From: Escherichia coli
GTDB lineage: Bacteria; Pseudomonadota; Gammaproteobacteria; Enterobacterales; Enterobacteriaceae
Length of the DNA stretch: 64,000 nt
NCBI RefSeq assembly: GCF_009931435.1
Contig: NZ_CP043414.1
Reading direction: 5' to 3' (one strand)
Shown here: positions 35,079 through 57,287 of the stretch, in pieces
Layout of the letters: the number at the start of each line of letters is the position of its first letter
Numbering within the stretch: position 1 is the stretch's first letter
Translations under genes and position numbers: made by a program
The notes under the pieces: model-generated
The model's database searches: none
Told to the model about the DNA's origin: nothing
Seen by the model: only the letters and a program-made list of their open reading frames with translations

Positions 35079-35080
35079 AT

Positions 35081-37195: not shown

Positions 37196-37198
37196 GAC

Positions 37199-37978: not shown

Positions 37979-37995
37979 AAGTGGTCAGACCTCCT
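37979..37995 (+). promoter_or_regulatory. Candidate FadR operator upstream of fadE
   Basis: AAGTGGTCAGACCTCCT resembles the FadR consensus AACTGGTCNGACCTGTT; about 20 nt upstream of the fadE start. Confidence 0.45.
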
Positions 37996-38016
37996 ACAAG
38001 TAAGGGGCTTTTCGTT

Positions 38017-40461
38017 ATGATGATTTTGAGTATTCTCGCTACGGTTGTCCTGCTCGGCGCGTTGTTCTATCACCGCGTGAGCTTATTTATCAGCAGTCTG
38101 ATTTTGCTCGCCTGGACAGCCGCCCTCGGCGTCGCTGGTCTGTGGTCGGCGTGGGTACTGGTGCCTCTGGCCATTATCCTCGTACCGTTTAACTTTGCGC
38201 CTATGCGTAAGTCGATGATTTCCGCACCGGTATTTCGCGGTTTCCGTAAGGTGATGCCGCCAATGTCGCGCACTGAAAAAGAAGCGATTGATGCAGGCAC
38301 TACCTGGTGGGAAGGCGACTTGTTCCAGGGTAAGCCGGACTGGAAAAAGCTGCATAACTATCCGCAGCCGCGCCTGACCGCTGAAGAGCAAGCGTTTCTC
38401 GACGGCCCGGTAGAAGAAGCCTGCCGGATGGCGAATGATTTCCAGATTACTCATGAGCTGGCGGATCTGCCGCCGGAGTTGTGGGCGTACCTTAAAGAGC
38501 ATCGCTTCTTCGCGATGATCATCAAAAAAGAGTACGGCGGGCTGGAGTTCTCGGCTTATGCCCAATCTCGTGTGCTGCAAAAACTCTCCGGCGTGAGCGG
38601 GATCCTGGCGATTACCGTCGGCGTGCCGAACTCATTAGGCCCGGGCGAGCTGCTGCAACATTACGGCACTGACGAGCAGAAAAATCACTATCTGCCGCGT
38701 CTGGCGCGTGGTCAGGAGATCCCTTGCTTTGCACTGACCAGCCCGGAAGCGGGTTCCGATGCGGGCGCGATTCCGGATACCGGGATTGTCTGCATGGGCG
38801 AGTGGCAGGGCCAGCAGGTGCTGGGGATGCGACTGACCTGGAACAAACGCTACATTACGCTCGCGCCAATTGCGACCGTGCTTGGGCTGGCGTTTAAACT
38901 TTCCGACCCGGAAAAACTGCTGGGTGGCGCAGAAGATTTAGGCATTACCTGTGCACTTATCCCGACCACCACGCCAGGCGTGGAAATTGGTCGTCGCCAC
39001 TTCCCGCTGAACGTACCGTTCCAGAACGGACCGACGCGAGGTAAAGATGTCTTCGTACCGATCGACTACATTATCGGCGGACCAAAAATGGCCGGGCAAG
39101 GCTGGCGGATGCTGGTGGAGTGTCTCTCCGTGGGGCGCGGCATCACCCTACCTTCCAACTCAACCGGCGGCGTGAAGTCGGTGGCGCTGGCAACGGGCGC
39201 GTATGCGCACATTCGCCGTCAGTTCAAAATCTCTATCGGTAAGATGGAAGGGATTGAAGAGCCGCTGGCGCGTATTGCCGGTAATGCCTACGTGATGGAT
39301 GCTGCGGCATCGCTGATTACCTACGGCATTATGCTCGGTGAAAAACCTGCCGTGCTGTCGGCTATCGTTAAGTATCACTGTACCCACCGTGGGCAGCAGT
39401 CGATTATTGATGCGATGGATATCACCGGGGGTAAAGGCATTATGCTCGGTCAGAGCAACTTCCTGGCACGAGCTTACCAGGGCGCACCGATTGCCATCAC
39501 CGTTGAAGGGGCCAACATTCTGACCCGCAGCATGATGATCTTCGGTCAGGGAGCGATTCGTTGCCATCCGTACGTGCTGGAAGAGATGGAAGCGGCGAAG
39601 AACAATGACGTAAACGCGTTCGATAAACTGCTGTTCAAACATATCGGTCACGTCGGTAGCAACAAAGTTCGCAGCTTCTGGCTGGGCCTGACGCGCGGTT
39701 TAACCAGCAGCACGCCAACCGGCGATGCCACTAAACGCTACTATCAGCACCTGAACCGCCTGAGCGCCAACCTCGCCCTGCTTTCTGATGTCTCGATGGC
39801 TGTGCTGGGCGGCAGCCTGAAACGTCGCGAGCGTATCTCGGCACGTCTGGGGGATATTTTAAGCCAGCTTTACCTCGCCTCTGCCGTTCTGAAGCGTTAT
39901 GACGACGAAGGCCGTAATGAAGCCGACCTGCCGCTGGTGCACTGGGGCGTACAGGATGCGCTGTATCAGGCAGAGCAGGCGATGGACGATTTACTGCAAA
40001 ACTTCCCGAACCGCGTGGTTGCCGGGCTTCTGAATGTGGTGATCTTCCCGACCGGACGTCATTATCTGGCACCGTCTGACAAGCTGGATCATAAGGTGGC
40101 GAAGATTTTACAAGTGCCGAACGCCACCCGTTCACGTATTGGTCGCGGTCAGTACCTGACCCCGAGCGAGCATAACCCGGTTGGTTTACTGGAAGAGGCG
40201 CTGGTGGATGTGATTGCCGCCGACCCAATTCATCAGCGGATCTGTAAAGAGCTGGGTAAAAACCTGCCGTTTACCCGTCTGGATGAACTGGCGCATAACG
40301 CGCTGGCGAAGGGGCTGATTGATAAAGATGAAGCCGCTATTCTTGTGAAAGCTGAAGAAAGCCGTCTGCGCAGTATTAATGTTGATGACTTTGATCCGGA
40401 AGAGCTGGCGACGAAGCCGGTAAAGTTGCCGGAGAAAGTGCGGAAAGTTGAAGCCGCATAA
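38017..40461 (+). CDS. fadE: FadE, acyl-CoA dehydrogenase
   Basis: Track ORF 37939-40461; FadE is 814 aa starting [21 protein letters not shown], start at 38017 with AAGGGG SD. Confidence 0.95.
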
Positions 40462-40467
40462 TTGAAT

Positions 40468-40496
40468 AACGGAGCCGAAAGGCTCCGTTTCTTTAT
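40468..40496. terminator. Bidirectional rho-independent terminator between fadE and ivy
   Basis: AACGGAGCC-GAAA-GGCTCCGTT hairpin followed by TCTTTAT. Confidence 0.6.
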
Positions 40497-40503
40497 CCGC
40501 TAA

Positions 40504-40977
40504 TTATTTAAAATTAAAGCCATCCGGATGGTTTTCCAGGCTGCCGGTCAACGCCGCGAACAGCACCGTTTTACCATCAATAGAAAGCGCATCGTTCACA
40601 TTCAACCAGGTGAGTTTCTCTTGCGACGTTTTCTCATCAATGGTCGAGAACAGCCCCGTCATCTGATTAGATTTCTCGGACCACATCACAGCGATACGTT
40701 GCGAGCCACAGTCATGCGGTTTGCACGCGCTCATCACCTGATACGTCTCATCTCCCAACGTTACGGTTTGTGCAGGGGTATAAGTCCCGCCTTTCATCAC
40801 CCAGGCAGGCAGCTTATGCCCTTGTACCATCTGATTAAATGCAGCTTTGGTGGTTTCGCCCTTTGCAAGGCTGCTAATGGTTAAATCATCCTGCGCCATT
40901 GCACTGGTGGCGATGACCAGAGCGGCGACTGTCGTTATTGCCTTAAACATCATTCCTCCCGAGCTTATCCTGCCCAT
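40504..40977 (-). CDS. ivy: Ivy, inhibitor of vertebrate lysozyme
   Basis: 157 aa with signal peptide, recognised as Ivy (…DDLTISSLAKGETTKAAFNQMVQGHKLPAWV…CKPHDCGSQ…). Confidence 0.9.
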   Translation of the reverse strand: MGRISSGGMMFKAITTVAALVIATSAMAQDDLTISSLAKGETTKAAFNQMVQGHKLPAWVMKGGTYTPAQTVTLGDETYQVMSACKPHDCGSQRIAVMWSEKSNQMTGLFSTIDEKTSQEKLTWLNVNDALSIDGKTVLFAALTGSLENHPDGFNFK

Positions 40978-41130
40978 GTTATTAACCTCCTAAAGCCTGG
41001 CGATAACACGATAATTTGCAAATCAGATATTTCCAATATCAGCATTTGTTATCAATTTATTCTGCGCTAAGGCAACTGCCTGATAAGGTGTTAGAGTTAT
41101 AAAACCCTTCACATAAAGGAGTTGTACACC

Positions 41131-41901
41131 GTGCCTGGTTTGAAGATTACGCTTTTGCAGCAACCACTGGTGTGGATGGATGGTCCTGCCAACCTGCGCC
41201 ATTTTGATCGTCAACTAGAAGGTATTACCGGGCGCGATGTGATCGTTCTACCGGAGATGTTTACCAGCGGCTTTGCCATGGAAGCGGCCGCTTCGTCGCT
41301 AGCACAAGATGACGTAGTGAACTGGATGACAGCCAAAGCGCAGCAGTGCAATGCGTTGATTGCAGGCAGTGTTGCATTACAAACGGAGTCTGGTACGGTT
41401 AACCGCTTTTTGCTGGTTGAACCGGGCGGCACGGTACATTTTTATGATAAGCGTCATCTGTTCCGAATGGCAGATGAGCATCTGCATTATAAAGCGGGCA
41501 ATGCGCGAGTGATTGTGGAATGGCGCGGCTGGCGTATTTTGCCGCTGGTGTGCTACGACTTACGTTTTCCAGTGTGGTCGCGCAATCTCAACAATTATGA
41601 CCTCGCCATCTACGTCGCCAACTGGCCTGCACCGCGCTCTCTGCACTGGCAGGCATTGCTGACAGCCCGCGCGATTGAGAATCAGGCGTATGTGGCGGGA
41701 TGCAATCGCGTCGGCAGCGATGGCAACGGCTGCCATTATCGCGGTGACAGCCGGGTGATTAATCCACAGGGCGAGATTATCGCTACTGCCGACGCGCATC
41801 AGGCAACGCGCATTGATGCGGAGCTGTCGATGGCGGTGTTAAGGGAATATAGAGAAAAGTTTCCGGCATGGCGGGATGCGGATGAGTTTAGGTTGTGGTG
41901 A
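41131..41901 (+). CDS. yafV: YafV, omega-amidase (nitrilase superfamily)
   Basis: Track ORF starts at TTG 41122; YafV begins (V/M)PGLKITLLQQPLVWMDG, so GTG at 41131 with AAGGAG SD 9 nt upstream; nitrilase-family Cys (ILPLVCYDLRFP). Confidence 0.85.
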   Translation: MPGLKITLLQQPLVWMDGPANLRHFDRQLEGITGRDVIVLPEMFTSGFAMEAAASSLAQDDVVNWMTAKAQQCNALIAGSVALQTESGTVNRFLLVEPGGTVHFYDKRHLFRMADEHLHYKAGNARVIVEWRGWRILPLVCYDLRFPVWSRNLNNYDLAIYVANWPAPRSLHWQALLTARAIENQAYVAGCNRVGSDGNGCHYRGDSRVINPQGEIIATADAHQATRIDAELSMAVLREYREKFPAWRDADEFRLW

Positions 41902-42029
41902 GTGGGGGTTGTGTTTAGGGCCGGGGAGAGTTGGGGTATGACTACGAAAGCCCGCTCTCCTGCGACCACTTTTATCATAGGAGTGTGGAAGTGCTTTTCC
42001 ATCAATCGCGATGACGTCTCAGGGAAAGA

Positions 42030-43103
42030 TTACGAAAGCCCGCTCCCCGCAAGGACTGACGCCAGATACTTTCTGTCCATGGCTGCTTTTCGCATCTTAC
42101 GTCTTAACCCTGCCTTGAATACCTTATCATTCGTCAAAATATTAATTGCGATGTGCCGTATCCCTGAAAATAATTCTGCTGCATTTCCTCTTCTTATTTT
42201 GCAGTCGTCTTCATTCATTACCACGTCCAGACGCCAGTGCAGCTTATTCTCCACGTGCCAGTGGTTTCGGATTGCTGTGGCGAACTTCTCTGCGGTTAAA
42301 TCAGCAGAACTGATATAATATCTGACCGTCATTTCTGGCTCTTTCTTTTGTTCTGCTATTATTGACCGAAAGGAGACTGCCACGCATAATTTCTTCAGAC
42401 CTTTCCATTCAAACGTGAAATCAATAAGTTCATCAGGGACATCGCAAACAATGTGAAGACGGATTTCTTCTCTGCCGTGACTCTTTTCACTAATTGCGTA
42501 ACTGTCATGCTCTGGATTATTTAATTCTTTCAGCGGAAATTTTTCCTCGAAGCCTTTATTTAGCCGCCCCTGGTTTCCTTTTACAGCGAATAAATAATCA
42601 CCTCCCTGTTTTTGTATCTTCTCTGCAATATCTTTCTGGCAACCCATCGCATCAGTTGTGATGATTTTTCCTTTAATATCCAGCATGTTAAGAAGTTCTG
42701 GGATAGCTGTAATCTCATTGGATTTCTCATCCGTCTTGATCTGTCCGATGACCAGACTGTGCATTGTTGAGAACGCACTAATGACATGAATCGCTCCCCT
42801 GCGGCGACTCTTGTCATAAGAGTGCCGGAGCGTTTTTCCATCAATTGCAATGACGCCTTTATCATCTGAAGAATGGCAGTCACGCATCCAGTTAATAAAG
42901 CACTCGTGAAATTTTGCAGGACTGATACAGGATACAACTCTGGCAATGGTATCGTGAACAGGAATACCATTTTCAAAATCACCATATTGCTTCAAAAAAT
43001 CGAGATGTGTTTCCCCAAAATCCTCTATATCTTCCCAACCTTCTGCACCCGAAATAACGGCGCAAATAGTCAACAGTAGAATATCCGATAATTTATGTTC
43101 CAC
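42030..43103 (-). mobile_element. ISAs1-family (H-repeat-associated) transposase, intact ORF
   Basis: 357-aa ORF recognised as H-repeat/ISAs1 transposase ([39 protein letters not shown]...); lies next to the Rhs genes. Element ends (inverted repeats) not determined. Confidence 0.8.
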
Positions 43104-43310
43104 TTTCTAGGCTTGTCTGTAATCGGGGATAATAGAAATATGTTCCATCAATTTTTTAAGTTCCATTTTGTTCTCCTTAATTATGTAAGGAGTATTTGAT
43201 CATGTATAAGCAATAAAAAACAGCTTCAGGTAATGAGGAATATCTCAATTTTTAAACATAAAATGCGAATTGTTTAGTACAAAAAAGCAGCGTTACGTGA
43301 TCTTTCCCTG

Positions 43311-43414
43311 CCAGCCCCTCCGGGTTGACCTGCTCCGTCACCCGCAGAACCCTGCACAATATCCAGTCCCTTGCAGGTCATGTCACCCTGCCGCGCCGCC
43401 GGTTTTCCGCTCAT
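43311..43414 (-). pseudogene. Orphan Rhs 5' fragment (Rhs upstream region + first 22 codons fused to a short internal Rhs piece)
   Basis: Minus strand 43414 down to 43345 near-identical to the Rhs2 start ([13 protein letters not shown][C][11 protein letters not shown]) and preceded by the same upstream sequence (CATGGTTTATTCCT); 43344-43311 matches an internal Rhs segment (…[11 protein letters not shown]…) read out of frame; stop soon after. Confidence 0.55.
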
Positions 43415-43546
43415 GGTTTATTCCTTTTCTTTTACCTTACATGGCCATACAAATAGTTACCTATACTGTCTTTGAATATTGCCCTATCATTTAAAGCCCA
43501 CCTAATTTTTGCGACAGCAAAGGGATTTCTTTTTTAATCCAATCTA

Positions 43547-43939
43547 TCATTTCATTTTTTTAAAACATACGTTAATGCCATTCACACTTCCACATTCACC
43601 AAAAGCATCAAAATAAATTTCACATTTATTGTTGCCTTTCGAAATGATGCTAACCCCCCATCTTATATTGTTATATTTTTCTTTTCTGAAATACTTCATT
43701 TGCAATAAATCAATTATCTTACCCGCATAGAGATCGCTAAGTTCATTCACCACCACTTTATATCTGTATATTTCATTAAGACCTTCCTTGCTAAGCGGAA
43801 CTAACGTGGTAACATACGATGGAAGATTAACTACCTCTATCGTTTTCACGCTATCTATTCCACACAATTCATTCACTCGCCCCATCCCCAATACCGAACC
43901 AGAAAATAGAGACAATAAAACCATCAAATATTTCATCAT
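43547..43939 (-). CDS. Putative secreted immunity protein for the Rhs2 C-terminal toxin
   Basis: Track ORF starts at GTG 43951, overlapping the Rhs2 stop; ATG at 43939 has a GAGG SD. Sec signal peptide (MMKYLMVLLSLFSGSVLG), about 130 aa, AT-rich, immediately 3' of the Rhs2 toxin domain. No recognised family. Confidence 0.55.
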   Translation of the reverse strand: MMKYLMVLLSLFSGSVLGMGRVNELCGIDSVKTIEVVNLPSYVTTLVPLSKEGLNEIYRYKVVVNELSDLYAGKIIDLLQMKYFRKEKYNNIRWGVSIISKGNNKCEIYFDAFGECGSVNGINVCFKKMK

Positions 43940-43950
43940 AAAAAACCTCA

Positions 43951-46900
43951 CTATTCTGGCGTACCCGTTATTGTCATCGTCTGCAACGGTCCATCCACCC
44001 GATAAAAAGGCAGTCCACTATGAGCTCCTCTGACACACTCATCTAAAGTTTTCGCCGCACGCGATTCAATTATTGTAATAACCCTTGCCTCTTCTTTATT
44101 ATCATATTTCTTATCCGTCCGACTTAAAAGAGCCATGAAATTTTCTTTATCAAGAAGGTAATACTGTGCATGTGCAAACTCATGCCCCAAACCTAATGCA
44201 GGCGATTGTGATTTCGAGTTTAATTCAGTTGAACAAAATAAAGACGCTCTACTATTCCAATATATCGTCATATTATTCGAATTAAATCTACCATTGGTTC
44301 CTTCAATATACTCTATATTTATAGTTTCTTCAGAGCTTGATAAAAAATCTATAGCATCTTTCATTCGTGAATCTTTTTCTAAATACTTAACAGCCTGATT
44401 AAAATCACTTGGATCACCATTAACCTCGAATTTTAAACCCAAAGAATCTATAAACCGAACAGGGTTTAATGGATATTTATACAGATTCCATTCACCTCTT
44501 AGCCCGATTGGATCCTGCGTGATATACCTCCCCTGCAACGGGTCATAGTACCGGTGACGGTTGTAGTACAGCCCCGACTCCTCATCATACTGCTGCCCTG
44601 GCAGACGGTACGGCTGTTGCAGGTGCTCCGGGTTTTCCTCTCCCAGCAGGTTTCCCCACTCGTCATACTCCCCGCGCCACGCCGTTTCCCCTTCCGGGCT
44701 GATAAGCGCCTGCGGCAGCCCACGGTGGTCACAGTGGTAAAGATGAAGTTTCCTCTCCGGGATGTATTCTTCCTCCATCTGGTTGTTCATCTGTTCCGCC
44801 GTCAGCCCGCACTGCGCAAGCCATGCTTCACTCTCCGCACTCACCGCACCCGCGCGCAGTTCCCGCTCCAGCCTCCCCAGCATCACCGACAGCTCCGCCG
44901 GGAGCGTCACACCCGTGTCCTCCTGCAACACCTCCGCCAGGCTACGGTGCCGCGCCTTCGCCTGTTCGCCATTCTCTGTTTCGATTCTCAGGAGCGGCGT
45001 GAAGCTTCCCGGCTGATAAATCGTCTGGATACGTGTGGTGCCGGTCTGTACCGTCGTCAGCCTGTCACCGTCCCACCCGTACCATGTCTCCTCCGGTTTA
45101 CGCGACAGCGACATCCATCCCGTCAGGTCACGCTCCCGCCGCCACACCCGTTTTCCCGTCCTGCGGCCCAGCGGGTCGTAAAGGTAGCGGCTCTCCACCT
45201 GCGGCTCGCCGTGCTGTATCCGCGTGTAGAACACCAGACGGTGCTGGCTGTCGTAATGGTAGTGGTGGGTGCGCTCGTCGTGCATCCGTATCACCCCTTC
45301 CGGGATACGGTCCGTCTTCTCCGCCAGCCTGCCGTATTCATCGTGGCGGTAGACATAGTGCGCATCTTCCGCGATGCGGTTATCCGGCCACGCCGTGAAG
45401 GTGCTGTCCGGGTGCAGTTCCGGGTCCGGCAGCCGGTTTCCTGCCGGGTCCGTCGCATACGGGATATCAATGTCCAGGTTCGCTGCCGTGGTGTGGACGC
45501 CCGTCAGCCTTCCCGTGTCGCTGTAACGGTACTCCCGGCTCTCCTGCGGGCCGCTGATACGCACCAGTTGCCCGTTATCATTCCACGTATACTCACGGTC
45601 AAGCTGCGGAAGGTTCAGGTGCCTGCTCCGGAGCTGGCCTGTGAGGGTGTATGTGCTGGTCAGTTCATATGCGGCATTACTGCCTGCCATGCTGCCGAAG
45701 CTGCGCACCGTCTCACGGTGCAGCCTGTCCCGCGTGTACTCGACCAGCGGCGTTCCGCCCAGCTTCATCCCCGCAAGATAACCGCTGCCATACGTCAGCC
45801 ACTCCACCGGCGGCAGACCGTCCGGCTCCTGACGGGTCGCCAGCCCCTGTTCGCTGTACGCGTGCCCCGTCTCATGCTCCCACAGCATCTCCCCCGTCTC
45901 CGGGTTCTCCACCGTCTGCCGTTCGCCCGTCAGGCGGCCCTTATCGTCATAGCCGTAGTGGACCGCCACACGGTGGCCTTCACTGGTATGGCTGAGGGTG
46001 GTTAACCACCCGTGCTCATCATACTGCCACTGCTCTGCCGCTTCGCCGTTCACCGTCCGGTGCGTGATGCGGTCCGACGCATCGTAGTGCCAGAGGGTGA
46101 TAAGTCCCTCGTCTTCACTGCGGACAAGCTGCCCTGTGGCGCTGTACCGGTAACGCTGTGTCCGTCCGTCAAAGCCGCGCTGCTCCGTCAGGCGGTCCAC
46201 CGGGTCATACAGGAACGTGGACTGGCTGCCGTTCTCATTAGTCAGCGTGGTGATGCGCCCGGCGGCGTCATACCCCATGCTGCGCGTCAGACCGCCCTGC
46301 GTGGTGCTGATAGCTTTACCCCACGCATCATACTGTGTCTCACTGCGGCTGCCGTTCGGGGCAATGATAGCGGTGAGGTCGCCTGCGGCGCTGTACTCAT
46401 AACGGGTTTCACGCCCCTGCACATCCTTCTGACTGACCAGTTGACCACGCGGGTTATAACTGCTGTAAGTGCTGATGCCTTCTTCCCGGTGAACCGCCGT
46501 CCTCTGCCCGTACCGGTCGTACTCATACCGTGTCGTGTACCCCGAGCAGTCCGTGAAGGCCAGCAGTTGACCGTAGCGGCTCCATGCCATCTGTTTTGTA
46601 CTGCCCGTCGCATCCTGTATCCCTGTCGGCAGCTCACTCGCCGGGTCATCATAGCTGTACCGCGTCGTCTCACCGCTGCGCGAGGTCTCCGCCGCCAGCC
46701 TTCCCTTCTCATCATACTCCCGGCTGCTGCGAAGCCCGTCCGGGTACGTCACTGACGTCACCTGCCGCTGGCTGTTGTAGCCATACCGCACCGTCCTGCC
46801 GTCCGGCCCCGTCACCGCCGTCACCGCGCCCGACGCCATATGCAGGCTGTACTCCGTCCGCCGCCCCGCCGCATCCGTCTGCGCCTTCAGCCTCCCCGCC

Positions 46901-48207
46901 GCATCATACTCGCTGCGGGTGATGCTCCCGTCCGCATGCTCCTTCTTCACCACCCGCTTCAGGCCACCCTCGCCTTCCGTGTACAGCACCTCCCGCCTGT
47001 TCAGGCTGTCCGTGATGGTCACACGGTCCTGCCCGTACTCAAAGCGGTAGGCCAGCCCCTCCGGGTTGACCTGCTCCGTCACCCGACCGGTATCATCATA
47101 CCGGTAGCGGCTCTCCGGCCTCCCCGCATAATGGTGCGCCACCATCCGCCCGGCGTGCTCCGCATCATAAGTAAACCCGCGCACCTGCGTCCCGCTGCGG
47201 TCATACACCGCCAGCAACTCACCGCTGGCCGTGTACGTGTAGCGCGCCAGCGGCGCAGTCGGCTGTTCATCCGGGTATGCCGGGTCGTGTGTCAGCCACA
47301 CCGCCTCCAGCCGGATACCGTTATCGGCACCGTATTCTGTACCGGCGGGCAGCGTGTCGGGGAAAACCTGAGAAGAGGAAACAGAACGGGGACCGGCAGG
47401 GGAAGATAAAGACGTGGCGCGCTGTTTACGGCAGGCTTCCGCCCGCTGCGCCTGCGTGCTCAGCAACAGGTGAAAACGACGGCCCGCACCGTCCGTCCCC
47501 CCCGTCACCGCGCCCGCCACGTCACCCTCCGCTGCCCGGTGAAAGGCCAGCGTCCGACCAAAGCCATCCACCACGCCCGTCAGCACCCGGTATGCGGGCG
47601 GTTCCGGCGGCAGCACCTCGTCCGCCCCCGGCACCCGCTCCGGCCAGCTGAGTATCCACCACGGCCCCTGAAGGCTGTTTGTCGCCAGGTACACATGCGG
47701 ACTCAGGCGAACATCTTCCGGCAGCACCTGCCAGAGCGCGCTTAGCGGCTGCGAACTGTGCTGCTCCGCCCCCCCGCCCCGCGCCAGCCAGAACGACTCG
47801 CTGCGGCTGTAGCTTATCTCGCCGGGAAACAGCGGCTCAAAGTGAATGCTCCTGCCGCCGTTGTCGTTGAGTATCAGTTCCCGCTCATGAACCTGTAAGC
47901 GGATATCGAAGGGCGCTTTCCAGCCGGGGCCGAACACGCCCACCGGCGCGGGCGTCCTGGTCCGGTAACTGCTGTAAGCGCGGGAAAGAATAAACGGCAG
48001 CGGGCCGGGCAGTGCCAGGTCCGTCTCGCCCGGCAGCACCTTCGCACCCAGCACCGGGTTCACCGGGTTAGCATAGGTAATCCCTCCCGGACACACCGAG
48101 CAGGCCACTCCCGTCGGCGCACCTATCAGCACCCCTGCTGAACCCTGCACAATATCCAGTCCCTTGCGGGTCATGTCGCCCTGCCGCGCCGCCGGTTTTC
48201 CGCTCAT
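43951..48207 (-). CDS. PAAR-Rhs polymorphic toxin (Rhs2), HExxH-containing C-terminal domain
   Basis: 1418 aa; N-terminus carries a literal PAAR motif ([13 protein letters not shown]...GSAGVLIG); long YD-repeat core; core ends [27 protein letters not shown]; last about 160 aa unique, with HEFAH. Confidence 0.9.
44497..47450. repeat. Rhs core direct repeat, copy A (paired with 50623-53580)
   Basis: Track shows identical 483-aa antisense ORFs at 44554-46005 and 50680-52131, so at least 1.45 kb is nucleotide-identical between the two Rhs genes; flanking core highly similar with scattered substitutions. Outer boundaries approximate. Confidence 0.8.
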
Positions 48208-48330
48208 GGTTTATTCCTCTTCCTCTGAATAAACTTATTTTTGATGCACTAATGATTTTCAAAAGAGATTTATATTTAACGACAATTCAGCACTTTTAAT
48301 GTAAAAGATCCCCGGCTGAATGATATTCAC

Positions 48331-49323
48331 TCATTGTTTGTTATCAGAAAGTGTTTTATACAGCGGCACATATCCCACGTCTTCCACAAGACTTTGCCCC
48401 TGAGGGCTTAAAAACCAGTCCACTAGTTTTTGTGTTTCCGGTGTCGGCTTTTCGCGGGTGACCATGTAGGCATCCACCACATACGGATAAGTACCGTTGC
48501 GGATATTCTCCACCGTTGGTGCAATACCATTTATTGCCAGCAGCTTAAGATTTGGGCTTATATCCTTATTCATCTGTGTGACATAATAGCGGAAGGTGTA
48601 ACCAATTGAAGGCTGCGTATTCCGGTAGGCAATTACTTTGGTTAACACTCCATTCATAAGGCTTACTTCTGTAGATGTTCTGGCGGGTAGCATCGGTGTC
48701 TCTTTCATCACCTTTGCCAGCATCACCGTCTGGCTACCGGAATCTTCCGGACGCTGCCAGACCTGAATGCGCTCATCACTGCCACCAACCTGACTCCAGC
48801 GGGTGATTTTACCGCTGAAGATATCCCGAACCTGCTGTTCAGTAAAAGAACTGACCGGATTACTGGCGTTAACGATAAAAACAAAGGCTTCGTGGGCGAA
48901 GGGGGTATAAACCAGTTTCACCCCGGCATCGGCAGCCCGTTGTTTTTGTCCTGCGGAAGGCTGGGCAACAAAAATAACATCGGCCTGGCGCTTTATGAGA
49001 TCATTATAGGCTTCTGGTGTACGAGTCGGATACATATAATTCAAACCCGGATCTTGATGGTTATCCCCGGGGATCAAATATCGGTAAGCTGAAGCATACA
49101 GTGGATATAACGCGGTTGCACCACATACCCGGGGCCATTTATTCGAGTTATCAGTGTAGCGTAAAGTGGGTTCTCCTCGTATATTGGTTTTCTCCCAACT
49201 CACTGTTTCTTTTACGCTGTTATCGCCCCCGCCGTCTACACATCCTGACATTAATACCGTCATATAAAATAATACTGGTAACAGGCCCACCCTACGCATA
49301 CAATGATTTAATAAATACGCCAT
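48331..49323 (-). CDS. PstS-like (phosphate-binding-protein fold) putative lipoprotein, orphan
   Basis: Track ORF 48331-49365; start placed at ATG 49323 (GAGG SD 5-6 nt upstream) giving MAYLLNHCMRRVGLLPVLFYMTVLMSGC with lipobox-like LMSGC; PstS-like motifs (VIFVAQPSAGQ..., FTEQQVRDIFSGKITRWSQVGGSDERIQVW); no ABC transporter genes nearby. Confidence 0.55.
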   Translation of the reverse strand: MAYLLNHCMRRVGLLPVLFYMTVLMSGCVDGGGDNSVKETVSWEKTNIRGEPTLRYTDNSNKWPRVCGATALYPLYASAYRYLIPGDNHQDPGLNYMYPTRTPEAYNDLIKRQADVIFVAQPSAGQKQRAADAGVKLVYTPFAHEAFVFIVNASNPVSSFTEQQVRDIFSGKITRWSQVGGSDERIQVWQRPEDSGSQTVMLAKVMKETPMLPARTSTEVSLMNGVLTKVIAYRNTQPSIGYTFRYYVTQMNKDISPNLKLLAINGIAPTVENIRNGTYPYVVDAYMVTREKPTPETQKLVDWFLSPQGQSLVEDVGYVPLYKTLSDNKQ

Positions 49324-49627
49324 ATACCTCACTCTAAAATATTGATTATATAAATACATATGCATAATTATATTTACATCAAATTCTGAATGAACAATTT
49401 AAATTTAGAGAAAGTGAAATTTAATTTTTCGATACTTCCGCATACATATTCCCCTCGCTAAAAAATCATCATTCCACAATCAATCATTAATTACAACTCA
49501 ATATACATCATTTAACTTTCATTAAACTCGCAATTTATTATTACATTGTAGCCATTATGAACTGTCATCACGCACACACTCTACATACACATTAGAAACA
49601 ATATAACCCCATGAGCCATCCTCCGTT

Positions 49628-50074
49628 TCAATACTTAGTGCAGCGTGTCTTAAGGAAATTAGAAGCCACAACATCAATCTTTTCTTTTAAGACTAAATCA
49701 TCCACATAATCACAAGACAAATAGAAGTCATTACCATCGGCCATTATAAATATCCTCATAGGTAAAGATTTATCATTATCAACATGAGCATTCGTAATAA
49801 TCCAATAATAAGGAAATCTAACATTTTTTGTAGGAATACCCAATAAATCATAAGCTTTATTATTATATTCTATCGCTCCCTTAACAAACGTTGGTTTGAC
49901 CTCCTTACCAATAATGCGATGCGACGTATATTCTTCCTTCTCAGCAAACGATTGCATTAATGCCCATATAGGTTTATTTGCCAGCTCACCGTGATGAAAA
50001 ATCCGATAAAAATACACTCCTAAAAAAAATATTAAGCCTAAGCAAACCAATACCATGAGGCAGTTCTTACTCAT
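49628..50074 (-). CDS. Putative membrane-anchored immunity protein for the Rhs1 C-terminal toxin
   Basis: 148 aa; ATGA start/stop overlap with Rhs1; single N-terminal TM helix ([19 protein letters not shown]); AT-rich. No recognised family. Confidence 0.55.
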
Positions 50075-53000
50075 TGATTAAAATCCGTAAAATTAGAAGG
50101 AACAGGGCCATTCTCAGGTGAAAACAATGGAGATGTATTTGATACTCGTGATGCTATCATTTCTACAGTAGCAGGAAGATACATTGGCATTCCATTATCA
50201 CCACCTAGCGGATCAGTTGAAGTTAAAATTTCATTTATTGAATCTACTGAGACTCCCGCATGCAACATTGCCTCAATAACCATTGTTGCACAATTGTGCG
50301 TAAAATAGTTATAGTCACTTCTATCTACTTTATATTTTTCATCAATGTACTTAATCATTGCTTTCTCTTGTTCTGGCGTGGTTTTAATTGTATATATCCT
50401 CGTGCTTCTACGTTGTGCTTGTTCAGTTAAATAAGCTATGACACTCCCTCCACGTGGGGTAGCGGTTCCATAGCTATATACCCCTTTTCCAGTAAATGCC
50501 ATCGCAGAATGCCCTAATGGATTACCACTCGTGGGTCCCCCAGCAAAAATAAGGGTATCCAAACCAAGTGGATCTATATTTATAGTTGGATTCCACGGAT
50601 ATTTATAAAGATTCCATCCCCCCGCAAGCCCGATTGGATCCTGCGTGATATACCTCCCCTGCAACGGGTCATAGTACCGGTGACGGTTGTAGTACAGCCC
50701 CGACTCCTCATCATACTGCTGCCCTGGCAGACGGTACGGCTGTTGCAGGTGCTCCGGGTTTTCCTCTCCCAGCAGGTTTCCCCACTCGTCATACTCCCCG
50801 CGCCACGCCGTTTCCCCTTCCGGGCTGATAAGCGCCTGCGGCAGCCCACGGTGGTCACAGTGGTAAAGATGAAGTTTCCTCTCCGGGATGTATTCTTCCT
50901 CCATCTGGTTGTTCATCTGTTCCGCCGTCAGCCCGCACTGCGCAAGCCATGCTTCACTCTCCGCACTCACCGCACCCGCGCGCAGTTCCCGCTCCAGCCT
51001 CCCCAGCATCACCGACAGCTCCGCCGGGAGCGTCACACCCGTGTCCTCCTGCAACACCTCCGCCAGGCTACGGTGCCGCGCCTTCGCCTGTTCGCCATTC
51101 TCTGTTTCGATTCTCAGGAGCGGCGTGAAGCTTCCCGGCTGATAAATCGTCTGGATACGTGTGGTGCCGGTCTGTACCGTCGTCAGCCTGTCACCGTCCC
51201 ACCCGTACCATGTCTCCTCCGGTTTACGCGACAGCGACATCCATCCCGTCAGGTCACGCTCCCGCCGCCACACCCGTTTTCCCGTCCTGCGGCCCAGCGG
51301 GTCGTAAAGGTAGCGGCTCTCCACCTGCGGCTCGCCGTGCTGTATCCGCGTGTAGAACACCAGACGGTGCTGGCTGTCGTAATGGTAGTGGTGGGTGCGC
51401 TCGTCGTGCATCCGTATCACCCCTTCCGGGATACGGTCCGTCTTCTCCGCCAGCCTGCCGTATTCATCGTGGCGGTAGACATAGTGCGCATCTTCCGCGA
51501 TGCGGTTATCCGGCCACGCCGTGAAGGTGCTGTCCGGGTGCAGTTCCGGGTCCGGCAGCCGGTTTCCTGCCGGGTCCGTCGCATACGGGATATCAATGTC
51601 CAGGTTCGCTGCCGTGGTGTGGACGCCCGTCAGCCTTCCCGTGTCGCTGTAACGGTACTCCCGGCTCTCCTGCGGGCCGCTGATACGCACCAGTTGCCCG
51701 TTATCATTCCACGTATACTCACGGTCAAGCTGCGGAAGGTTCAGGTGCCTGCTCCGGAGCTGGCCTGTGAGGGTGTATGTGCTGGTCAGTTCATATGCGG
51801 CATTACTGCCTGCCATGCTGCCGAAGCTGCGCACCGTCTCACGGTGCAGCCTGTCCCGCGTGTACTCGACCAGCGGCGTTCCGCCCAGCTTCATCCCCGC
51901 AAGATAACCGCTGCCATACGTCAGCCACTCCACCGGCGGCAGACCGTCCGGCTCCTGACGGGTCGCCAGCCCCTGTTCGCTGTACGCGTGCCCCGTCTCA
52001 TGCTCCCACAGCATCTCCCCCGTCTCCGGGTTCTCCACCGTCTGCCGTTCGCCCGTCAGGCGGCCCTTATCGTCATAGCCGTAGTGGACCGCCACACGGT
52101 GGCCTTCACTGGTATGGCTGAGGGTGGTTAACCACCCGTGCTCATCATACTGCCACTGCTCTGCCGCTTCGCCGTTCACCGTCCGGTGCGTGATGCGGTC
52201 CGACGTATCGTAGTGCCAGAGGGTGATAAGCCCCTCGTCTTCACTGCGGACAAGCTGCCCTGCGGCGCTGTACCGGTAACGCTGTGTCCTGCCATCAAAG
52301 CCGCGCTGCTCCGTCAGGCGGTCCAGCACATCATAGGTAAACTCACTCCGGCTGCCGTTCTCGTTGGTCAGCACGGTGATGCGCCCGGCGGCGTCATACC
52401 CCATGCTGCGCGTCAGCCCGCCCTGCGTGGTGCTGACGGCCTTTCCCCACGCATCATACTGTGTCTCACTGCGGCTGCCGTCCGGGGCAATGATAGCGGT
52501 GAGGTCGCCTGCGGCGCTGTACTCATAACGGGTTTCACGCCCCTGCACATCCTTCTGACTGACCAGTTGACCACGCGGGTTATAACTGCTGTAAGTGCTG
52601 ATGCCTTCTTCCCGGTGAACCGCCGTCCTCTGCCCGTACCGGTCGTACTCATACCGTGTCGTGTACCCCGAGCAGTCCGTGAAGGCCAGCAGTTGACCGT
52701 AGCGGCTCCATGCCATCTGTTTTGTACTGCCCGTCGCATCCTGTATCCCTGTCGGCAGCTCACTCGCCGGGTCATCATAGCTGTACCGCGTCGTCTCACC
52801 GCTGCGTGAGGTCTCCGCCGCCAGCCTTCCCTTCTCGTCATACTCCCGGCTGCTGCGCAGCCCGTCCGGGTACGTCACTGACGTCACCTGCCGCTGGCTG
52901 TTGTAGCCATACCGCACCGTCCTGCCGTCCGGCCCCGTCACCGCCGTCACCGCGCCCGACGCCATATGTATCCGGTACTCCGTCCGCCGTCCCGCCGCAT

Positions 53001-54342
53001 CCGTCTGCGCCTTCAGCCTCCCCGCCTCATCATACCCGCTGCGGGTGATGCTCCCGTCCGCATGCTCCTTCTTCACCACACGCTTCAGGCCACCCTCGCC
53101 CTCCGTGTACAGCACCTCCCGCCTGTTCAGGCTGTCCGTGATGGTCACACGGTCCTGCCCGTACTCAAAGCGGTAGTCCAGTCCCTCCGGGTTGACCTGC
53201 TCCGTCACCCGCCCGGTATCATCATACCGGTAGCGGCTCTCCGGCCTCCCCGCATAATGGTGCGCCACCATCCGCCCGGCGTGCTCCGCATCATAAGTAA
53301 ACCCGCGCACCTGCGTCCCGCTGCGGTCATACACCGCCAGCAACTCACCGCTGGCCGTGTACGTGTAGCGCGCCAGCGGCGCAGTCGGCTGTTCATCCGG
53401 GTATGCCGGGTCGTGTGTCAGCCACACCGCCTCCAGACGGATACCGTTATCGGCACCGTATTCTGTACCGGCGGGCAGCGTGTCGGGGAAAACCTGAGAA
53501 GAGGAAACAGAACGGGGACCGGCAGGGGAAGATAAAGACGTGGCGCGCTGTTTACGGAAGGCTTCCGCCCGCTGCGCCTGCGTGCTCAGCAACAGGTGAA
53601 AACGACGGCCCGCACCGTCCGTCACCCCCGTCACCGCGCCCGCCACGTCACCCTCTGCCACCCGGTGGAAAGTCATCGTCCGACCAAAGCCATCCACCAC
53701 GCCCGTCAGTACCCGGTATGCGGGTGGCTCCGGCGGCAGCACCTCGTCCACTTCCGGCACCCGCTCCGGCCAGCCGAGCACCAGCCACTGCCCGGTTGTG
53801 CTGACAGCCATCATATAGGTGTGTGGACTCAGGCGGACCGCTTCCGGCAGCGCCCGCCAGAACCGCGCAAGCGGGTGTCCTTTATGCTGTTTCAGCACCC
53901 CGCCCCGCGCCAGCCAGAACGACTCGCTGCGGCTGTAGCTTATCTCGCCGGGAAACAGGGGTTCAAAGTGGATGCTCCGGCCACCGCTGTCGTTAAGTAT
54001 CAGTTCACGCTCACAAATCTGTAAGCGGATGTCGGAGGGGGCTTTCCAGCCGGGGCCGAATATCCCCACCGGGGCTGGCGTCTTCGTCCGGTAACTGCTG
54101 TAGGCGCGGAAAAGGATGAACGGCAACGGGCCGGATAGTGCCAGGTCGGTTTCAGCAGGCAGTACCTTCGCTCCCAGCAGCGGGTTTACCGGATTGCCAT
54201 ATTTCGGCGTGGCTTCCCCTGTGGGACACACCGAGCAGGCAACCCCCGTCGGCGCACCTATCAGCACCCCTGCTGAACCCTGCACAATATCCAGTCCCTT
54301 GCGGGTCATGTCACCCTGCCGCGCCGCCGGTTTTCCGCCCAT
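50071..54342 (-). CDS. PAAR-Rhs polymorphic toxin (Rhs1), His/Cys-containing C-terminal domain
   Basis: 1423 aa; PAAR motif at N-terminus ([13 protein letters not shown]...); YD-repeat core; core ends [27 protein letters not shown]; last about 162 aa unique (…[11 protein letters not shown]…[11 protein letters not shown]…); GAAGGA SD; 75 nt downstream of vgrG. Confidence 0.9.
50623..53580. repeat. Rhs core direct repeat, copy B (paired with 44497-47450)
   Basis: See copy A; same orientation, about 6.1 kb apart. Confidence 0.8.
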
Positions 54343-54417: not shown

Positions 54418-56559
54418 TCAAAATTGCCGCATATCCGGCATTCCGGGGGGTAAATCTTTCGGCACAGGCGCATCCGGCACAGGTTGTGTGGCACCACAGT
54501 TCCAGTTAATCACCGGCGCATCACCGTTCACATCCGACTCCCCTTCCAGATGAATGTGCGTACCATTAAGAAATATGCTTCCGTCCTTCGTCAGCACCAG
54601 CCTTGCCTTACCACAGCAGAGTTCAAGATGCTCACCGGCAGAATAAACTGCTGTTTGTCCGGTGTTTTCCTTCATCGTCTTGCCCACCGAGAAGGTGACG
54701 TTATTCCCTACATTGACGCTGTAGCCCATTCCCACCATCAGTGATTTATGCAGCCCTACCTGTGAGGACTGCAACAACGCCACCGAGGTATTCATAATGC
54801 CGCCTACCGTCGTCTGGTAAGCCACGCCCACCGTCAGCGCACGAATGATCCCCACCTTTTCAACCTGGTTTGATCCCACTTTGATAATCTGGTTACTGCC
54901 CACCGTTTCCACCTGGTTGACACCAACCGTCTGTATCTGATTAACGCCAATGTTCTGGATCTGGTTATTGGTAACGGTGATCGCCTGGTTGTTACCTATT
55001 TTTTCGGCATGGTTGTTTATCACATCAGTGGTGCGGTTATTCAGCACCTCGGTGTTCATGTTCTTCTGCGCGTGGATGTAGACCTGTTCTTTCCCTGTCG
55101 CATCGTCAAACTTCAGTTCATTAAACCCGCTGCCCTTATAGGTTTTCGAACGAATGGTCATCTGCGTCTTTGTTCCCGGCAGGCTGCCGGGGGTGCGGTT
55201 TTCCTGGTGGTAGGTACGCCCCATAATAATCGGCTGGTCCGGATCGCCGTTGAGGAAGTCCACAATGACCTCCTGACCCACACGCGGTATCGCCAGGTTA
55301 CCAAACCCGGTGCCTGCCCACGCCTGTGCCACACGGATCCAGCATGAACTGTCCTGGTTTGACGGGTTATAACGGTCCCAGTTAAATTTCACCCGCACGC
55401 GGCCATGTTCATCACAGAAGATTTCTTCTCCTGCCGGTCCCGTCACGACGGCGCTCTGCGGGCCATCCACCAGCGGTTTCAGCAACGGCTGTGGCCGCCA
55501 TGTTCTGTCTGCCGGTATTACCGCAAAGTGGTTATTCAGCGTGGTACCTGAACCCCTGCGTCCCGGCACCGCCTGCGGCTGCTCGCCGTGCAGTTCACTT
55601 GCCACCACCTGCCATTCCCGGTTCAGGTTCGCCTGCGGATGCCCCGTCAGCGCAATTCGCCGTCCCGGCCATATCTCCGGAGAACGGCTTGTTCCGCGCG
55701 CCACTTCTGCGTTGTTTCGCCAGCCATCCATCTGCCAGCGGGCAAAGTTCTGCCCGTGGGCACCCTTGAAACGTCCGGGGTAGTCATACACTTCATACTG
55801 TGTGCGCTGGTAATCCTGGTACTGGCCTTCCTGATCAAAACGCCCTGCCCAGCCGGGTCGTTTAAAGGTGTAGTCCTTGGTCACCACGGAAGAAGGGCGG
55901 ATTTGTGCGCTGTAGCGGAACTGGCTGATGCATAGGGTGCTCACCTCGGTACGGGTGTTCGGATTCCAGGGGATCTCAAAGGACTCCGGCAGATAACGCA
56001 CGGTGTCGCACAGGACCAGGCTCTGGTCGGTACTTTTTTGCGCGTGCTCCTCATAAAAGAAGATGCCTTCCTCCGCCGCCATCCGGCACAGGAAATCGTA
56101 ATCGGTTTCGCCGTACTGGACACAAAACTCACGGGAAGGATGCGGCTCGCTGAACAGCGGACTCCACTCGGTCACCCCGTTTTCTTTCAGGATCGTCGCG
56201 AGTATGCTTTCGATGTCCTCATTCTGGAAGATACGGAAGTTCTGGCGCAGCCCTGTGCGCCACAGCGGTGGGCATACCTTCATGCTGTACAGCATCTGGT
56301 TTTTGTCGTTCTCCCCCAGTTCAAACCAGGTCACCACACCTTTCACCCGGCGCTGTACGTCATCGCCCTGCCATATCGTCAGGTAGGCCATTTTGTCCAG
56401 CACCTGCGCAAATTCAAGGGAGAGAAACTGCTGGCTGACCAGAGAGAGATCGAGGGAAAAGAGCGAAGAGAGTGACTGGTTCAGATGAAAGGAGACCACC
56501 GCAAACGCGTCCGGTGGCAGGCCGTCCACTTCCAGCGTGAAACGTAATCCGGTTGACAT
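54418..56559 (-). CDS. vgrG: VgrG (TssI) spike protein
   Basis: 713 aa; gp27/gp5-like region and C-terminal beta-helix repeats (VGVNQVETVGSNQIIKVGSNQVEKVG); no large C-terminal effector extension. Confidence 0.9.
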   Translation of the reverse strand: MSTGLRFTLEVDGLPPDAFAVVSFHLNQSLSSLFSLDLSLVSQQFLSLEFAQVLDKMAYLTIWQGDDVQRRVKGVVTWFELGENDKNQMLYSMKVCPPLWRTGLRQNFRIFQNEDIESILATILKENGVTEWSPLFSEPHPSREFCVQYGETDYDFLCRMAAEEGIFFYEEHAQKSTDQSLVLCDTVRYLPESFEIPWNPNTRTEVSTLCISQFRYSAQIRPSSVVTKDYTFKRPGWAGRFDQEGQYQDYQRTQYEVYDYPGRFKGAHGQNFARWQMDGWRNNAEVARGTSRSPEIWPGRRIALTGHPQANLNREWQVVASELHGEQPQAVPGRRGSGTTLNNHFAVIPADRTWRPQPLLKPLVDGPQSAVVTGPAGEEIFCDEHGRVRVKFNWDRYNPSNQDSSCWIRVAQAWAGTGFGNLAIPRVGQEVIVDFLNGDPDQPIIMGRTYHQENRTPGSLPGTKTQMTIRSKTYKGSGFNELKFDDATGKEQVYIHAQKNMNTEVLNNRTTDVINNHAEKIGNNQAITVTNNQIQNIGVNQIQTVGVNQVETVGSNQIIKVGSNQVEKVGIIRALTVGVAYQTTVGGIMNTSVALLQSSQVGLHKSLMVGMGYSVNVGNNVTFSVGKTMKENTGQTAVYSAGEHLELCCGKARLVLTKDGSIFLNGTHIHLEGESDVNGDAPVINWNCGATQPVPDAPVPKDLPPGMPDMRQF

Positions 56560-56768: not shown

Positions 56769-57287
56769 TTATGCTTCCAGCGGTGCGCGCCAGTCGTCGG
56801 CACCGGAGGTGCCAGATTTGACGTGTTCCCACTCAATCTTGCGGTAGGCCAGTGAAACTTCGAGCAACTGGGTGAACTCGCGTTTCGCCGGGTCCTGGCA
56901 ATGCGGCATATGCAGTTTCATATCGACAATCGTCGAATCAGTCAGGCGGGTGGTGAAATAATGCTCCTGTTTGCCTTCCACAGATGTACGCCACCAGTGC
57001 AGTTCAGTGGTTGGCAGCATTTCACCGGAGGCCAGTGCGTTGTACATCAGCGGAACCGCTTTGTTCAGCGCCACGGTAAAAATGAACGGCTTGTGAGCAC
57101 GCTGACCCGCAGGCTGACCGGACTGAGGATCGGTCGGGACAGTAACGTTATGCAGGAATTCCTGCACCAGCATCTCGTCTTCGTGCCCCTGCACATAGAT
57201 GTTGCCGACAGAATCAGCGGTAAATGCACCTGCAGTAATATTTCCCTGGGTCTGACCAGTGATGGAGATATAACACGGTGTTGGCAT
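56769..57287 (-). CDS. hcp: Hcp (TssD) tube protein
   Basis: 172 aa, Hcp1-family sequence (MPTPCYISITGQTQGNITAGAFTADSVGNIYVQGHEDEMLVQEF...); directly upstream of vgrG. Confidence 0.85.
   Translation of the reverse strand: MPTPCYISITGQTQGNITAGAFTADSVGNIYVQGHEDEMLVQEFLHNVTVPTDPQSGQPAGQRAHKPFIFTVALNKAVPLMYNALASGEMLPTTELHWWRTSVEGKQEHYFTTRLTDSTIVDMKLHMPHCQDPAKREFTQLLEVSLAYRKIEWEHVKSGTSGADDWRAPLEA

Follow-up and report, generated by a model that had tools for sequence, protein, structure and literature searches.

We analysed a stretch of 64,000 nucleotides from the Escherichia coli contig NZ_CP043414.1 (assembly GCF_009931435.1), hereafter called the window, around a gene for a lipoprotein that resembles the phosphate-binding protein PstS and lies between two Rhs toxin-immunity modules of a type VI secretion system (T6SS) locus. 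A preliminary description of this DNA had placed a lipoprotein gene of about 330 codons at 48331-49323, without giving its strand, between the first Rhs immunity gene and the promoter of the second rhs gene. Gene and position are both borne out: it is a minus-strand open reading frame (ORF) of 330 codons plus stop, which runs from an ATG at 49323, with GAGG before it, to 48331, and it lies between immA (49628-50074) and rhsB, which starts at 48207. An alternative in-frame ATG at 49365 would give a product of 344 residues. On the minus strand the order is hcp, vgrG, rhsA, immA, spacer, PstS-like gene, spacer, rhsB, immB, rhs fragment, ISAs1, yafV, ivy and fadE, and tssB, tssC, tssE, tssF and tssG lie on the other side. 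The features concerned are:

56769-57287, minus strand: hcp
54418-56559, minus strand: vgrG
50071-54342, minus strand: rhsA, the vgrG-linked PAAR-Rhs gene (1423 residues), with toxin CT-A of the permuted NlpC/P60 class (Lnb_N/DUF4105, TseH, PPPDE-like)
49628-50074, minus strand: immA, ORF of 148 residues that overlaps the rhsA stop by 4 nt; one N-terminal transmembrane (TM) helix
49324-49627, minus strand: upstream spacer of 304 nt, AT-rich (29% GC); left recombination junction
48331-49323, minus strand: PstS-fold (PBP_like_2) lipoprotein gene of the YzgL-like subfamily, 330 residues, lipobox cysteine at residue 28
48208-48330, minus strand: downstream spacer of 123 nt between the stop codon of the lipoprotein gene and the rhsB ATG
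43951-48207, minus strand: rhsB, the resident PAAR-Rhs gene (1418 residues), with the HExxH toxin CT-B
43547-43951, minus strand: immB, 134 residues with a signal peptide; RefSeq 'RHS element protein dsORF-h1' at 97% identity
43316-43414, minus strand: 5' fragment of a third rhs gene (codons 1-33), truncated beside the ISAs1 transposase gene
42030-43103, minus strand: ISAs1-family transposase gene

The C-terminal toxin domain (CT) of rhsA, CT-A (50071-50560), carries a His...Asn-Cys motif and matches Lnb_N/DUF4105 (E=3.5e-7), with weak matches to PPPDE and TseH. Tox-Act1, a member of the permuted NlpC/P60 class, is a periplasm-acting phospholipase whose immunity protein has two TM helices (PMC12994826). 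CT-B (43951-44430) has an HExxH motif and a weak match to Peptidase_M91. immA is the probable cognate immunity gene of CT-A, and it is plausible that both window toxins have exported immunity partners of their own. The third rhs start has the same leader of about 25 nt and is what is left of a further copy of rhs. No transporter gene was found near the PstS-like gene, whose flanks hold T6SS genes, ISAs1, yafV, ivy and fadE, in keeping with the absence of permease and ATPase genes reported before.

The N-terminus of the lipoprotein reads MAYLLNHCMRRVGLLPVLFYMTVLMSG-C28-VDGGG in translation, and direct reading of this sequence reveals a positive n-region with two arginines, a hydrophobic core and the lipobox LMSG-C28. 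The only Pfam domains above threshold were PBP_like_2 (PF12849, E=5.3e-32, residues 94-307) and a second, weak match, SBP_bac_11. An AlphaFold2 model calculated from a 42-sequence alignment reached a mean pLDDT of 86.2 and a pTM of 0.82, with disorder confined to the signal peptide. In a Foldseek search of the PDB the top 45 matches (E down to 1e-18, about 20% identity) were to PstS, DING or other proteins that bind phosphate, among them Sll0540 (9l8j), 4n13, 1twy, 4gd5, 4exl and E. coli 1a40, and the family profile matched 4q8r and 4gd5 (E=5e-24). The profile and structure searches that the preliminary description had proposed thus led to PstS-type proteins, and in the model the mature part adopts a two-lobed, PstS-type class II binding-protein fold behind a Sec/lipoprotein signal.

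This fold and a Sec signal are common to the window protein and PstS (TIGR00975/TIGR02136; PDB 4gd5, 4q8r, 1twy, 4exl, 1a40); PstS is a lipoprotein in Gram-positives, and the window protein is likewise lipid-anchored. A true PstS identity was nevertheless rejected. Both NCBIfam scores stayed below their cut-offs, at 128.3 bits against 206.6 for TIGR02136 ('PstS family') and at 16.8 bits against 205 for TIGR00975, the PstS equivalog; the window protein is only about 20% identical and has an extra N-terminal segment of about 35 residues before the fold; changes affect two of the four loops that bind phosphate; and the gene has neither pstCAB nearby nor a Pho box.

To map the binding loops, the family profile was aligned with two structures of Clostridium PstS in complex with phosphate, 4q8r and 4gd5. 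The first PstS loop, G-S-T-S, corresponds to G68-A-T70-A in the window lipoprotein, the second, G-S-S, to R-T102-P-E-A-Y, the A-S-R-D segment to A-Q-P-S123, and the R-E-D-G-S-G-T loop to R191-P-E-D-S195-G196-S197. PstS motifs had been called clear in this protein. This holds for the R-x-x-x-S-G-(S/T) loop, here R-x-x-x-S-G-S, and the G-x-T loop, the two anion-binding loops, which are kept together with the G(T/S)YP motif, but not for the GS(S/G) loop or the Asp56-equivalent position, both of which are changed. About half of the listed phosphate-coordinating residues are kept in the alignment to the two structures. The phosphate ligands of E. coli PstS we take to be Thr10/Phe11, Ser38, Asp56, Arg135 and Ser139-Gly140-Thr141; the Ser38 loop and Asp56 have a role in the recognition of protonated phosphate. 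The mapped loop residues show little or no variation among 42 diverse members of the family, so that an anion or phosphoryl pocket has probably been kept.

The surroundings of the gene were also searched for signs of phosphate regulation. No Pho box was found in 49324-49627 by a consensus search allowing at most three mismatches, which is a weak test; the single site that this search returned in the 64-kb window, at 21771-21788 (CTGTAATATATCTTTAAC), lies 76 nt upstream of the phoE ORF (21864-22925, identified by NCBIfam at 783 bits) and provides a built-in positive control. Neither pstC, pstA, pstB nor phoU is present in the window, and none of them adjoins the relatives in 79 genome loci. Classical phosphate uptake is unlikely because of the sub-threshold scores, the altered loops, the missing linkage to pstCAB in the family and the missing Pho box. 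The related proposal of a phosphate scavenger, in the form of an auxiliary high-affinity protein that passes phosphate to the housekeeping PstCAB, would agree with the PstS fold, with the two retained loops and with the name 'PstS family' given to relatives in RefSeq. We consider it quite improbable, since both PstS models are missed, the Ser38 loop and the Asp56 equivalent are replaced, the search that recovered the phoE site found nothing upstream of this gene, pstCAB adjoins no family member in the surveyed loci, and most family members are tethered by a polytopic domain, unlike a diffusible solute-binding protein (SBP). Orphan SBPs without a cognate ABC importer include the DING proteins and those SBPs whose partners are chemoreceptors or kinases, to which they signal. 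The window lipoprotein is, like these orphan SBPs, a stand-alone binding module without a linked permease.

A homology search returned 937 relatives, the closest of which, in Escherichia albertii, is 96% identical (E=1e-211). They comprise lipoproteins of about 330 residues and proteins of about 500 residues, in which a polytopic membrane domain of about 200 residues precedes the binding domain; this N-domain gave a confident model (pLDDT 90) and has no solved structural relative. The window lipoprotein contains both signatures of the YzgL-like membrane-anchored PBP_like_2 subfamily, IFVAQ[PA]S (as IFVAQPS) and [SA][IL]GY[TS]FRYY (as SIGYTFRYY), and is 61-72% identical to its members, so that by its motifs and its predicted anchor it belongs to this subfamily. 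The binding domain of the subfamily is always membrane-tethered, through the polytopic N-domain or through a lipid anchor, and essentially never adjoins ABC permease or ATPase genes.

Between glgP and glpD, the default site in Enterobacteriaceae, E. coli carries the long form. This family locus is matched in 5196 of the 5426 complete E. coli genomes, and K-12-like strains have only a 5' remnant, annotated yzgL. The full-length YzgL protein of about 500 residues, annotated 'PstS family', shares the two signatures and 61-67% identity over the binding domain with the window protein; the window copy differs in being lipid-anchored, in lacking the fused polytopic domain and in its place within a T6SS Rhs array of the aspV-side island. 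We compared the glgP-glpD loci of E. coli and its relatives (L001-L004, L008/L009, L012-L026, L091, L094, L095 and L106) and found them variable. They hold one to three paralogues, some of which are lipoprotein forms and match the window gene better than anything else in E. coli, the second gene being a lipoprotein paralogue 62-67% identical to the window protein. They also contain a TM-only gene related to the N-domain, of which no counterpart exists in the window, and small genes that vary between loci (a YbbD-family protein, which is a Rhs-element ORF type, a 255-residue family, a secreted repeat protein and an ankyrin-repeat protein); one Superficieibacter locus has a helicase-type gene. 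In strain 2020CK-00188 a homologue of immB (46% identity) lies two genes downstream of a lipoprotein paralogue. All together, the glgP-glpD array resembles an orphan-immunity or defence hotspot. That it might be a decayed Rhs element was rejected, as rhs remnants were looked for there and none was found.

Outside the Enterobacterales, relatives at 41-50% identity occur in Campylobacterota, Burkholderiales, Bacillota (Lysinibacillus, Sporosarcina, Ureibacillus), Treponema and Actinomycetota, and their neighbours in Bacillota, Campylobacterota and spirochaetes are housekeeping genes. From species-representative genomes we retrieved, by means of the two signature motifs, 300 tblastn-confirmed relatives, and when neighbouring genes were clustered neither a conserved partner nor a phosphate permease emerged. 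The family is essentially chromosomal: a tblastn search of a plasmid collection gave five matching records, three of them chromosome-sized, and no copy on a mobile plasmid or in a Rhs/T6SS context. It is an old, conserved, transporter-less, membrane-tethered and uncharacterised family of binding proteins. The preliminary description had named a common housekeeping paralogue without a tie to Rhs as the finding that would undo its proposal. The family is indeed not specific to Rhs or T6SS loci and has its default site at glgP-glpD; a mobile paralogue does, however, recur in Rhs/T6SS arrays.

Comparison with other genomes suggests how the gene came into the window. At the corresponding locus complete E. 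coli genomes have only hcp-vgrG-rhs-dsORF-h1-ISAs1-yafV-ivy, with a single rhs and no PstS-like gene. Strain LD93-1 has the order ivy-yafV-ISAs1-dsORF-h1-rhs-vgrG-hcp, its rhs being 94% identical to rhsB including CT-B and its dsORF-h1 97% identical to immB. The flanking core DNA (window 30000-43500, with fadE, ivy, yafV and lateral-flagellar remnants) is only about 96% identical to E. coli and is present in nearly all 5426 genomes. With the nearest relative of the lipoprotein gene annotated as E. albertii, the window may come from a divergent lineage of Escherichia and not from typical E. coli. When these genomes were searched by megablast/blastn, the PstS-like gene was found at 85% DNA identity or more in none of them (0/5426), only the glgP-glpD paralogues at about 71% identity being detected, and CT-A and immA were likewise absent. 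By this comparison, the window consists of the resident E. coli aspV locus plus an extra unit of 6,135 bp, measured from rhs start to rhs start, that comprises rhs (CT-A), immA and the PstS-like gene and was integrated through rhs-rhs recombination into an E. coli-type vgrG-rhs-dsORF-h1 locus. The position of the lipoprotein gene between two Rhs modules thus has a mechanical explanation, its entry as part of a unit flanked by rhs.

In LD93-1 the toxin domain reads GHGFAH where window CT-B has GHEFAH, and this orthologue may be catalytically dead.

The E. albertii contig that carries the 96% homologue has the same layout, vgrG, rhs, lipoprotein gene, rhs. Its upstream toxin is a different domain, CT-C, without a separate immunity ORF; the search of the complete E. 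coli genomes gave no close copy of CT-C. Upstream of the lipoprotein gene the homology between the window and the E. albertii locus is limited to about 60 nt next to the start codon, and the toxin module has therefore been swapped around a constant lipoprotein gene. Downstream, the first 20 nt or so after the stop codon are common to the window and the Salmonella locus L010, and the last 25 nt or so are the 5' leader of all rhs starts in the window. Spacer homology between the window and Salmonella was dropped as an argument, because the three rhs starts of the window share only this generic leader.

Copies of the lipoprotein clade outside the window were found in E. albertii and in three types of Salmonella locus. 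In the first type, an array beside a Peptidase_U32 gene, two copies are each followed by a 'mini-rhs' of 77-80 N-terminal codons joined to a CT, which in one case is of the CT-B-like HExxH kind and comes with an immB-like ORF; in L092 a gene of the SseK family (SseK_NleB) lies two genes past the Peptidase_U32 gene. In the second (L010/L011) the gene stands at the end of an island like Salmonella pathogenicity island 6 (SPI-6), 54 nt after an orphan CT-A-like domain that has no immunity ORF, and an rhs YD fragment follows directly. The third (L103) combines an Rhs gene with a CT like phospholipase A2 (PLA2), an ankyrin lipoprotein, a truncated CT-C, the PstS-like gene, a Tlde1-like/Tldi-like pair and a PAAR gene. 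The Rhs CT of L103 has the secreted-PLA2-like motif CxxHDxCY (CRKHDICYG) and precedes the ankyrin-repeat lipoprotein; further on lie the Tlde1-like ORF with its YkuD motif (HxxxxxxGC), a signal-peptide partner and the PAAR gene (L103 2024-4668 and 6777-8163). A metagenomic relative (71% identity) also lies among small immunity-like ORFs. The earlier suggestion that the gene is cargo of the effector island is thereby borne out: the E. coli locus without it has a single rhs, and relatives sit inside the arrays of E. albertii and the three Salmonella types.

In these arrays the lipoprotein gene is maintained. Twelve lipoprotein-clade copies were compared, half of them from Rhs/T6SS arrays; the ORF is intact in every one, and deep pairwise comparisons within the clade gave ratios of nonsynonymous to synonymous substitution (dN/dS) of 0.13-0.30 at dS 0.7-1.9. 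The rhs genes that adjoin the copies are frameshifted, truncated or reduced to mini-genes. In E. albertii (L005, a contig present in 4 samples) the vgrG-linked rhs is split at 8709-8767 into two overlapping ORFs by an apparent frameshift, and its CT-C toxin may be unexpressed. These comparisons argue that purifying selection keeps the lipoprotein intact while neighbouring toxins are swapped or decay.

The same data bear on the possibility that the gene is a neutral hitch-hiker, trapped once between two rhs genes, copied by rhs-rhs recombination and functionless here. The gene is bounded by recombination junctions on either side, with an upstream flank that differs from locus to locus and a downstream one that is always an rhs 5' end or fragment, and its GC content, 46.8%, is unlike the 33-39% of the CT and immunity modules. 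ORF and lipobox are, however, intact in five of six array copies across dS above 1 (dN/dS 0.13-0.30), the exception being the L010 copy, whose signal is short and possibly 5'-truncated, and the surrounding rhs genes have meanwhile been reduced to mini-genes or fragments. We regard a neutral hitch-hiker as improbable. Hitch-hiking alone does not explain why the gene persists, intact and under purifying selection, in several independent arrays, nor does it explain the immunity-type genes found with the family at glgP-glpD.

A protein encoded next to Rhs toxins invites comparison with immunity proteins, and an orphan immunity protein of a different fold had been among the earlier suggestions. In the window the slot directly after rhsA is filled by immA, and the lipoprotein gene starts 304 nt further on. 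Its co-occurrence with Rhs CT types had been proposed earlier as a check: the lipoproteins keep 66-72% identity whichever of four CT types (CT-A with immA, CT-A-like, CT-C and CT-B-like) they accompany, and in the block common to the window and Salmonella the lipoprotein is 67% identical while CT-B and immB are 38% and 22% identical, respectively. A role as cognate immunity protein of the flanking toxins was rejected, as it does not co-vary with the toxin domains and both toxins have immunity ORFs of their own, bearing a signal peptide or a TM helix.

CT-C deserves separate consideration. It was located in L005 (9530-9896), L092 (7154-7784), L103 (4930-5247), L096 (8001-8771) and L099 (1123-1782), and has 327 cluster representatives, in which it is C-terminal on proteins of up to 2,389 residues; the carriers are Rhs, PT-HINT, YD-shell and other proteins. 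Its conserved positions are a His, an Asn and an Asn-Cys pair, and it matched nothing in Pfam or the PDB. Judged by its distribution, CT-C is a genuine polymorphic toxin domain, as yet uncharacterised. Homology to CT-A was considered but found no support, as hhalign with 4- and 38-sequence profiles was not significant and the resemblance is limited to the His...Asn-Cys motif. In Salmonella bongori and in L099 CT-C is followed by a polytopic membrane protein of 60-93 residues and not by the PstS-like gene.

It may still be asked whether the lipoprotein, in spite of its unusual fold, confers true immunity to a periplasm-acting CT-C or a CT-A-like toxin of the permuted NlpC/P60 class; the window copy would then either be an orphan or add a second immunity gene to immA. 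The gene follows CT-C after about 60-220 nt, with no ORF between, in E. albertii L005, Salmonella L006/L092 and L103, and it follows a CT-A-like toxin after a 54-nt gap in L010/L011. The compartment would be right, as signal peptides or TM helices are present in immA, in immB and in the immunity protein that accompanies CT-C at other loci, and the Tox-Act1 class acts in the periplasm (PMC12994826). The gene also stays intact beside frameshifted or truncated toxins, as orphan immunity genes do. Indeed, like the periplasmic T6SS immunity proteins (Tli, Tai and Tsi types, Imm-Act1; PMC12994826), the window lipoprotein is exported to the predicted compartment of the neighbouring toxins, is encoded directly after toxin domains in some loci and persists where toxins have decayed; it differs from them in not co-varying with toxins and in being conserved across phyla. 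Moreover, Imm-Act1, the documented partner of Tox-Act1, is a small protein with two TM segments, unlike this lipoprotein (PMC12994826). Several further observations make such an immunity role unlikely. The CT-C homologues of S. bongori and L099 have the polytopic membrane protein as their expected immunity protein, window CT-A already has the overlapping immA, and the lipoprotein is much more conserved than the CT/immunity pair of the same block, from whose cassettes it also differs in GC content. Proteins of Bacillota and spirochaetes that are 41-50% identical to it have housekeeping neighbours, the conserved anion-binding loops point to a small ligand, and the strain with the frameshift-split CT-C gene in E. 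albertii may need no immunity.

The last alternative is an accessory factor, co-transcribed with the downstream Rhs gene and needed for its expression, loading or self-protection. In the window, E. albertii and Salmonella L006a/L092a the gene is followed after 59-123 nt by an rhs start on the same strand; no terminator-like site was found in 48208-48330; and the order of lipoprotein gene, CT-B and immB is common to the window and Salmonella, and the lipoprotein gene also precedes an immB-like gene in an E. coli glgP-glpD array. This role is very improbable all the same, as the known Rhs/T6SS adaptors are cytoplasmic whereas the lipoprotein is exported, the E. coli orthologue of rhsB/dsORF-h1 occurs without it, the downstream gene in Salmonella L103 is a Tlde1-like effector and not an rhs, and conservation of the spacer amounts to the generic rhs leader. 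A T6SS adaptor or chaperone (Eag/DUF1795, DUF4123, DUF2169) was rejected, since the protein has none of these Pfam domains and its lipoprotein signal directs export.

The explanation that we prefer, and to which we give an even chance, is that the gene encodes a transporter-less binding lipoprotein of altered specificity, with a putative anionic ligand, kept as long-lived cargo of conflict islands and not as the cognate immunity protein of either flanking toxin. Lipidation of Cys28 would anchor the protein facing the periplasm, and the Val at position +2 would direct it to the outer membrane by the E. coli Lol rule. The binding domain may close on an anionic, probably phosphoryl-containing ligand through the retained T70, R191 and S195-G196-S197 loops, and its specificity would be altered by the change of the Ser38 loop to R-T-P-E-A-Y and by Ser123 in place of the Asp56 equivalent. 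As no transporter is linked to it, the protein would act by binding, that is by sequestering, presenting or sensing its ligand, rather than by import. It would then persist as cargo of enterobacterial immunity/effector arrays under purifying selection for an envelope benefit that does not depend on a given toxin.

Several observations weigh against this explanation. The toxin-adjacent slot is filled by the lipoprotein gene in four locus types (L005, L010/L011, L092 and L103). The dN/dS between the window and E. albertii copies is 0.60, from very few substitutions. The lipoprotein forms make up one clade apart from the long forms, with the Rhs-embedded and glgP-glpD copies interleaved within it, in a neighbour-joining tree without support values. 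Sorting to the outer membrane follows from the +2 rule only. Finally, we infer the toxin-independent benefit from retention and purifying selection, and the ligand and the role are putative.

What the benefit might be can be outlined. General protection against periplasm-acting effectors would be a plausible role. A more definite proposal, which we judge distinctly unlikely, is that YzgL-type lipoproteins are generic protective factors that bind a phosphoryl-containing envelope molecule or cleavage product and so blunt T6SS effectors that target lipids or the envelope, and that the glgP-glpD array is an unrecognised orphan-immunity array; candidate ligands would be a phospholipid or lipoprotein head-group or a lyso-product, and candidate toxins the Tox-Act1/TseH-like domains and CT-C. 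If the lipoprotein does aid survival of T6SS attack, it would be a component of immunity islands that works without one-to-one binding of a toxin, and protection would provide a function for a family present, as full-length YzgL, in most E. coli genomes. For the annotation of Rhs loci, a conserved gene that is neither toxin nor immunity gene travels by rhs-rhs recombination, and the glgP-glpD and Rhs arrays have immunity-type genes in common. Should the gene be a passenger only, the outcome would be a modest correction of annotation, namely that the label 'PstS family' does not here mean phosphate transport. The protein is in any case best filed as a YzgL-type PstS-fold binding protein and not as PstS.

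A literature search (PstS/Rhs/T6SS, yzgL, the glgP/glpD hotspot, SPI-6 VR3, Sll0540, orphan immunity islands) returned no description of the lipoprotein, and none of the glgP-glpD array as a variable hotspot; the preliminary statement that no role in T6SS loci has been described agrees with the searchable T6SS papers, which mention no such protein. The supplements of PMC12994826 list no PBP_like_2 or PstS gene near Tox-Act1 homologues. A PADLOC scan of the lipoprotein and its neighbours gave zero matches, a promoter and terminator scan around the gene gave sites no commoner than in shuffled sequence, and an Rfam scan of the window had no match near the gene. The matches above the gathering score in that scan were an IS009 RNA (6340-6540, minus strand), naRNA4 (CssrE; 37111-37188, minus strand) and tRNA-Thr(CGU) (19025-19100, minus strand).

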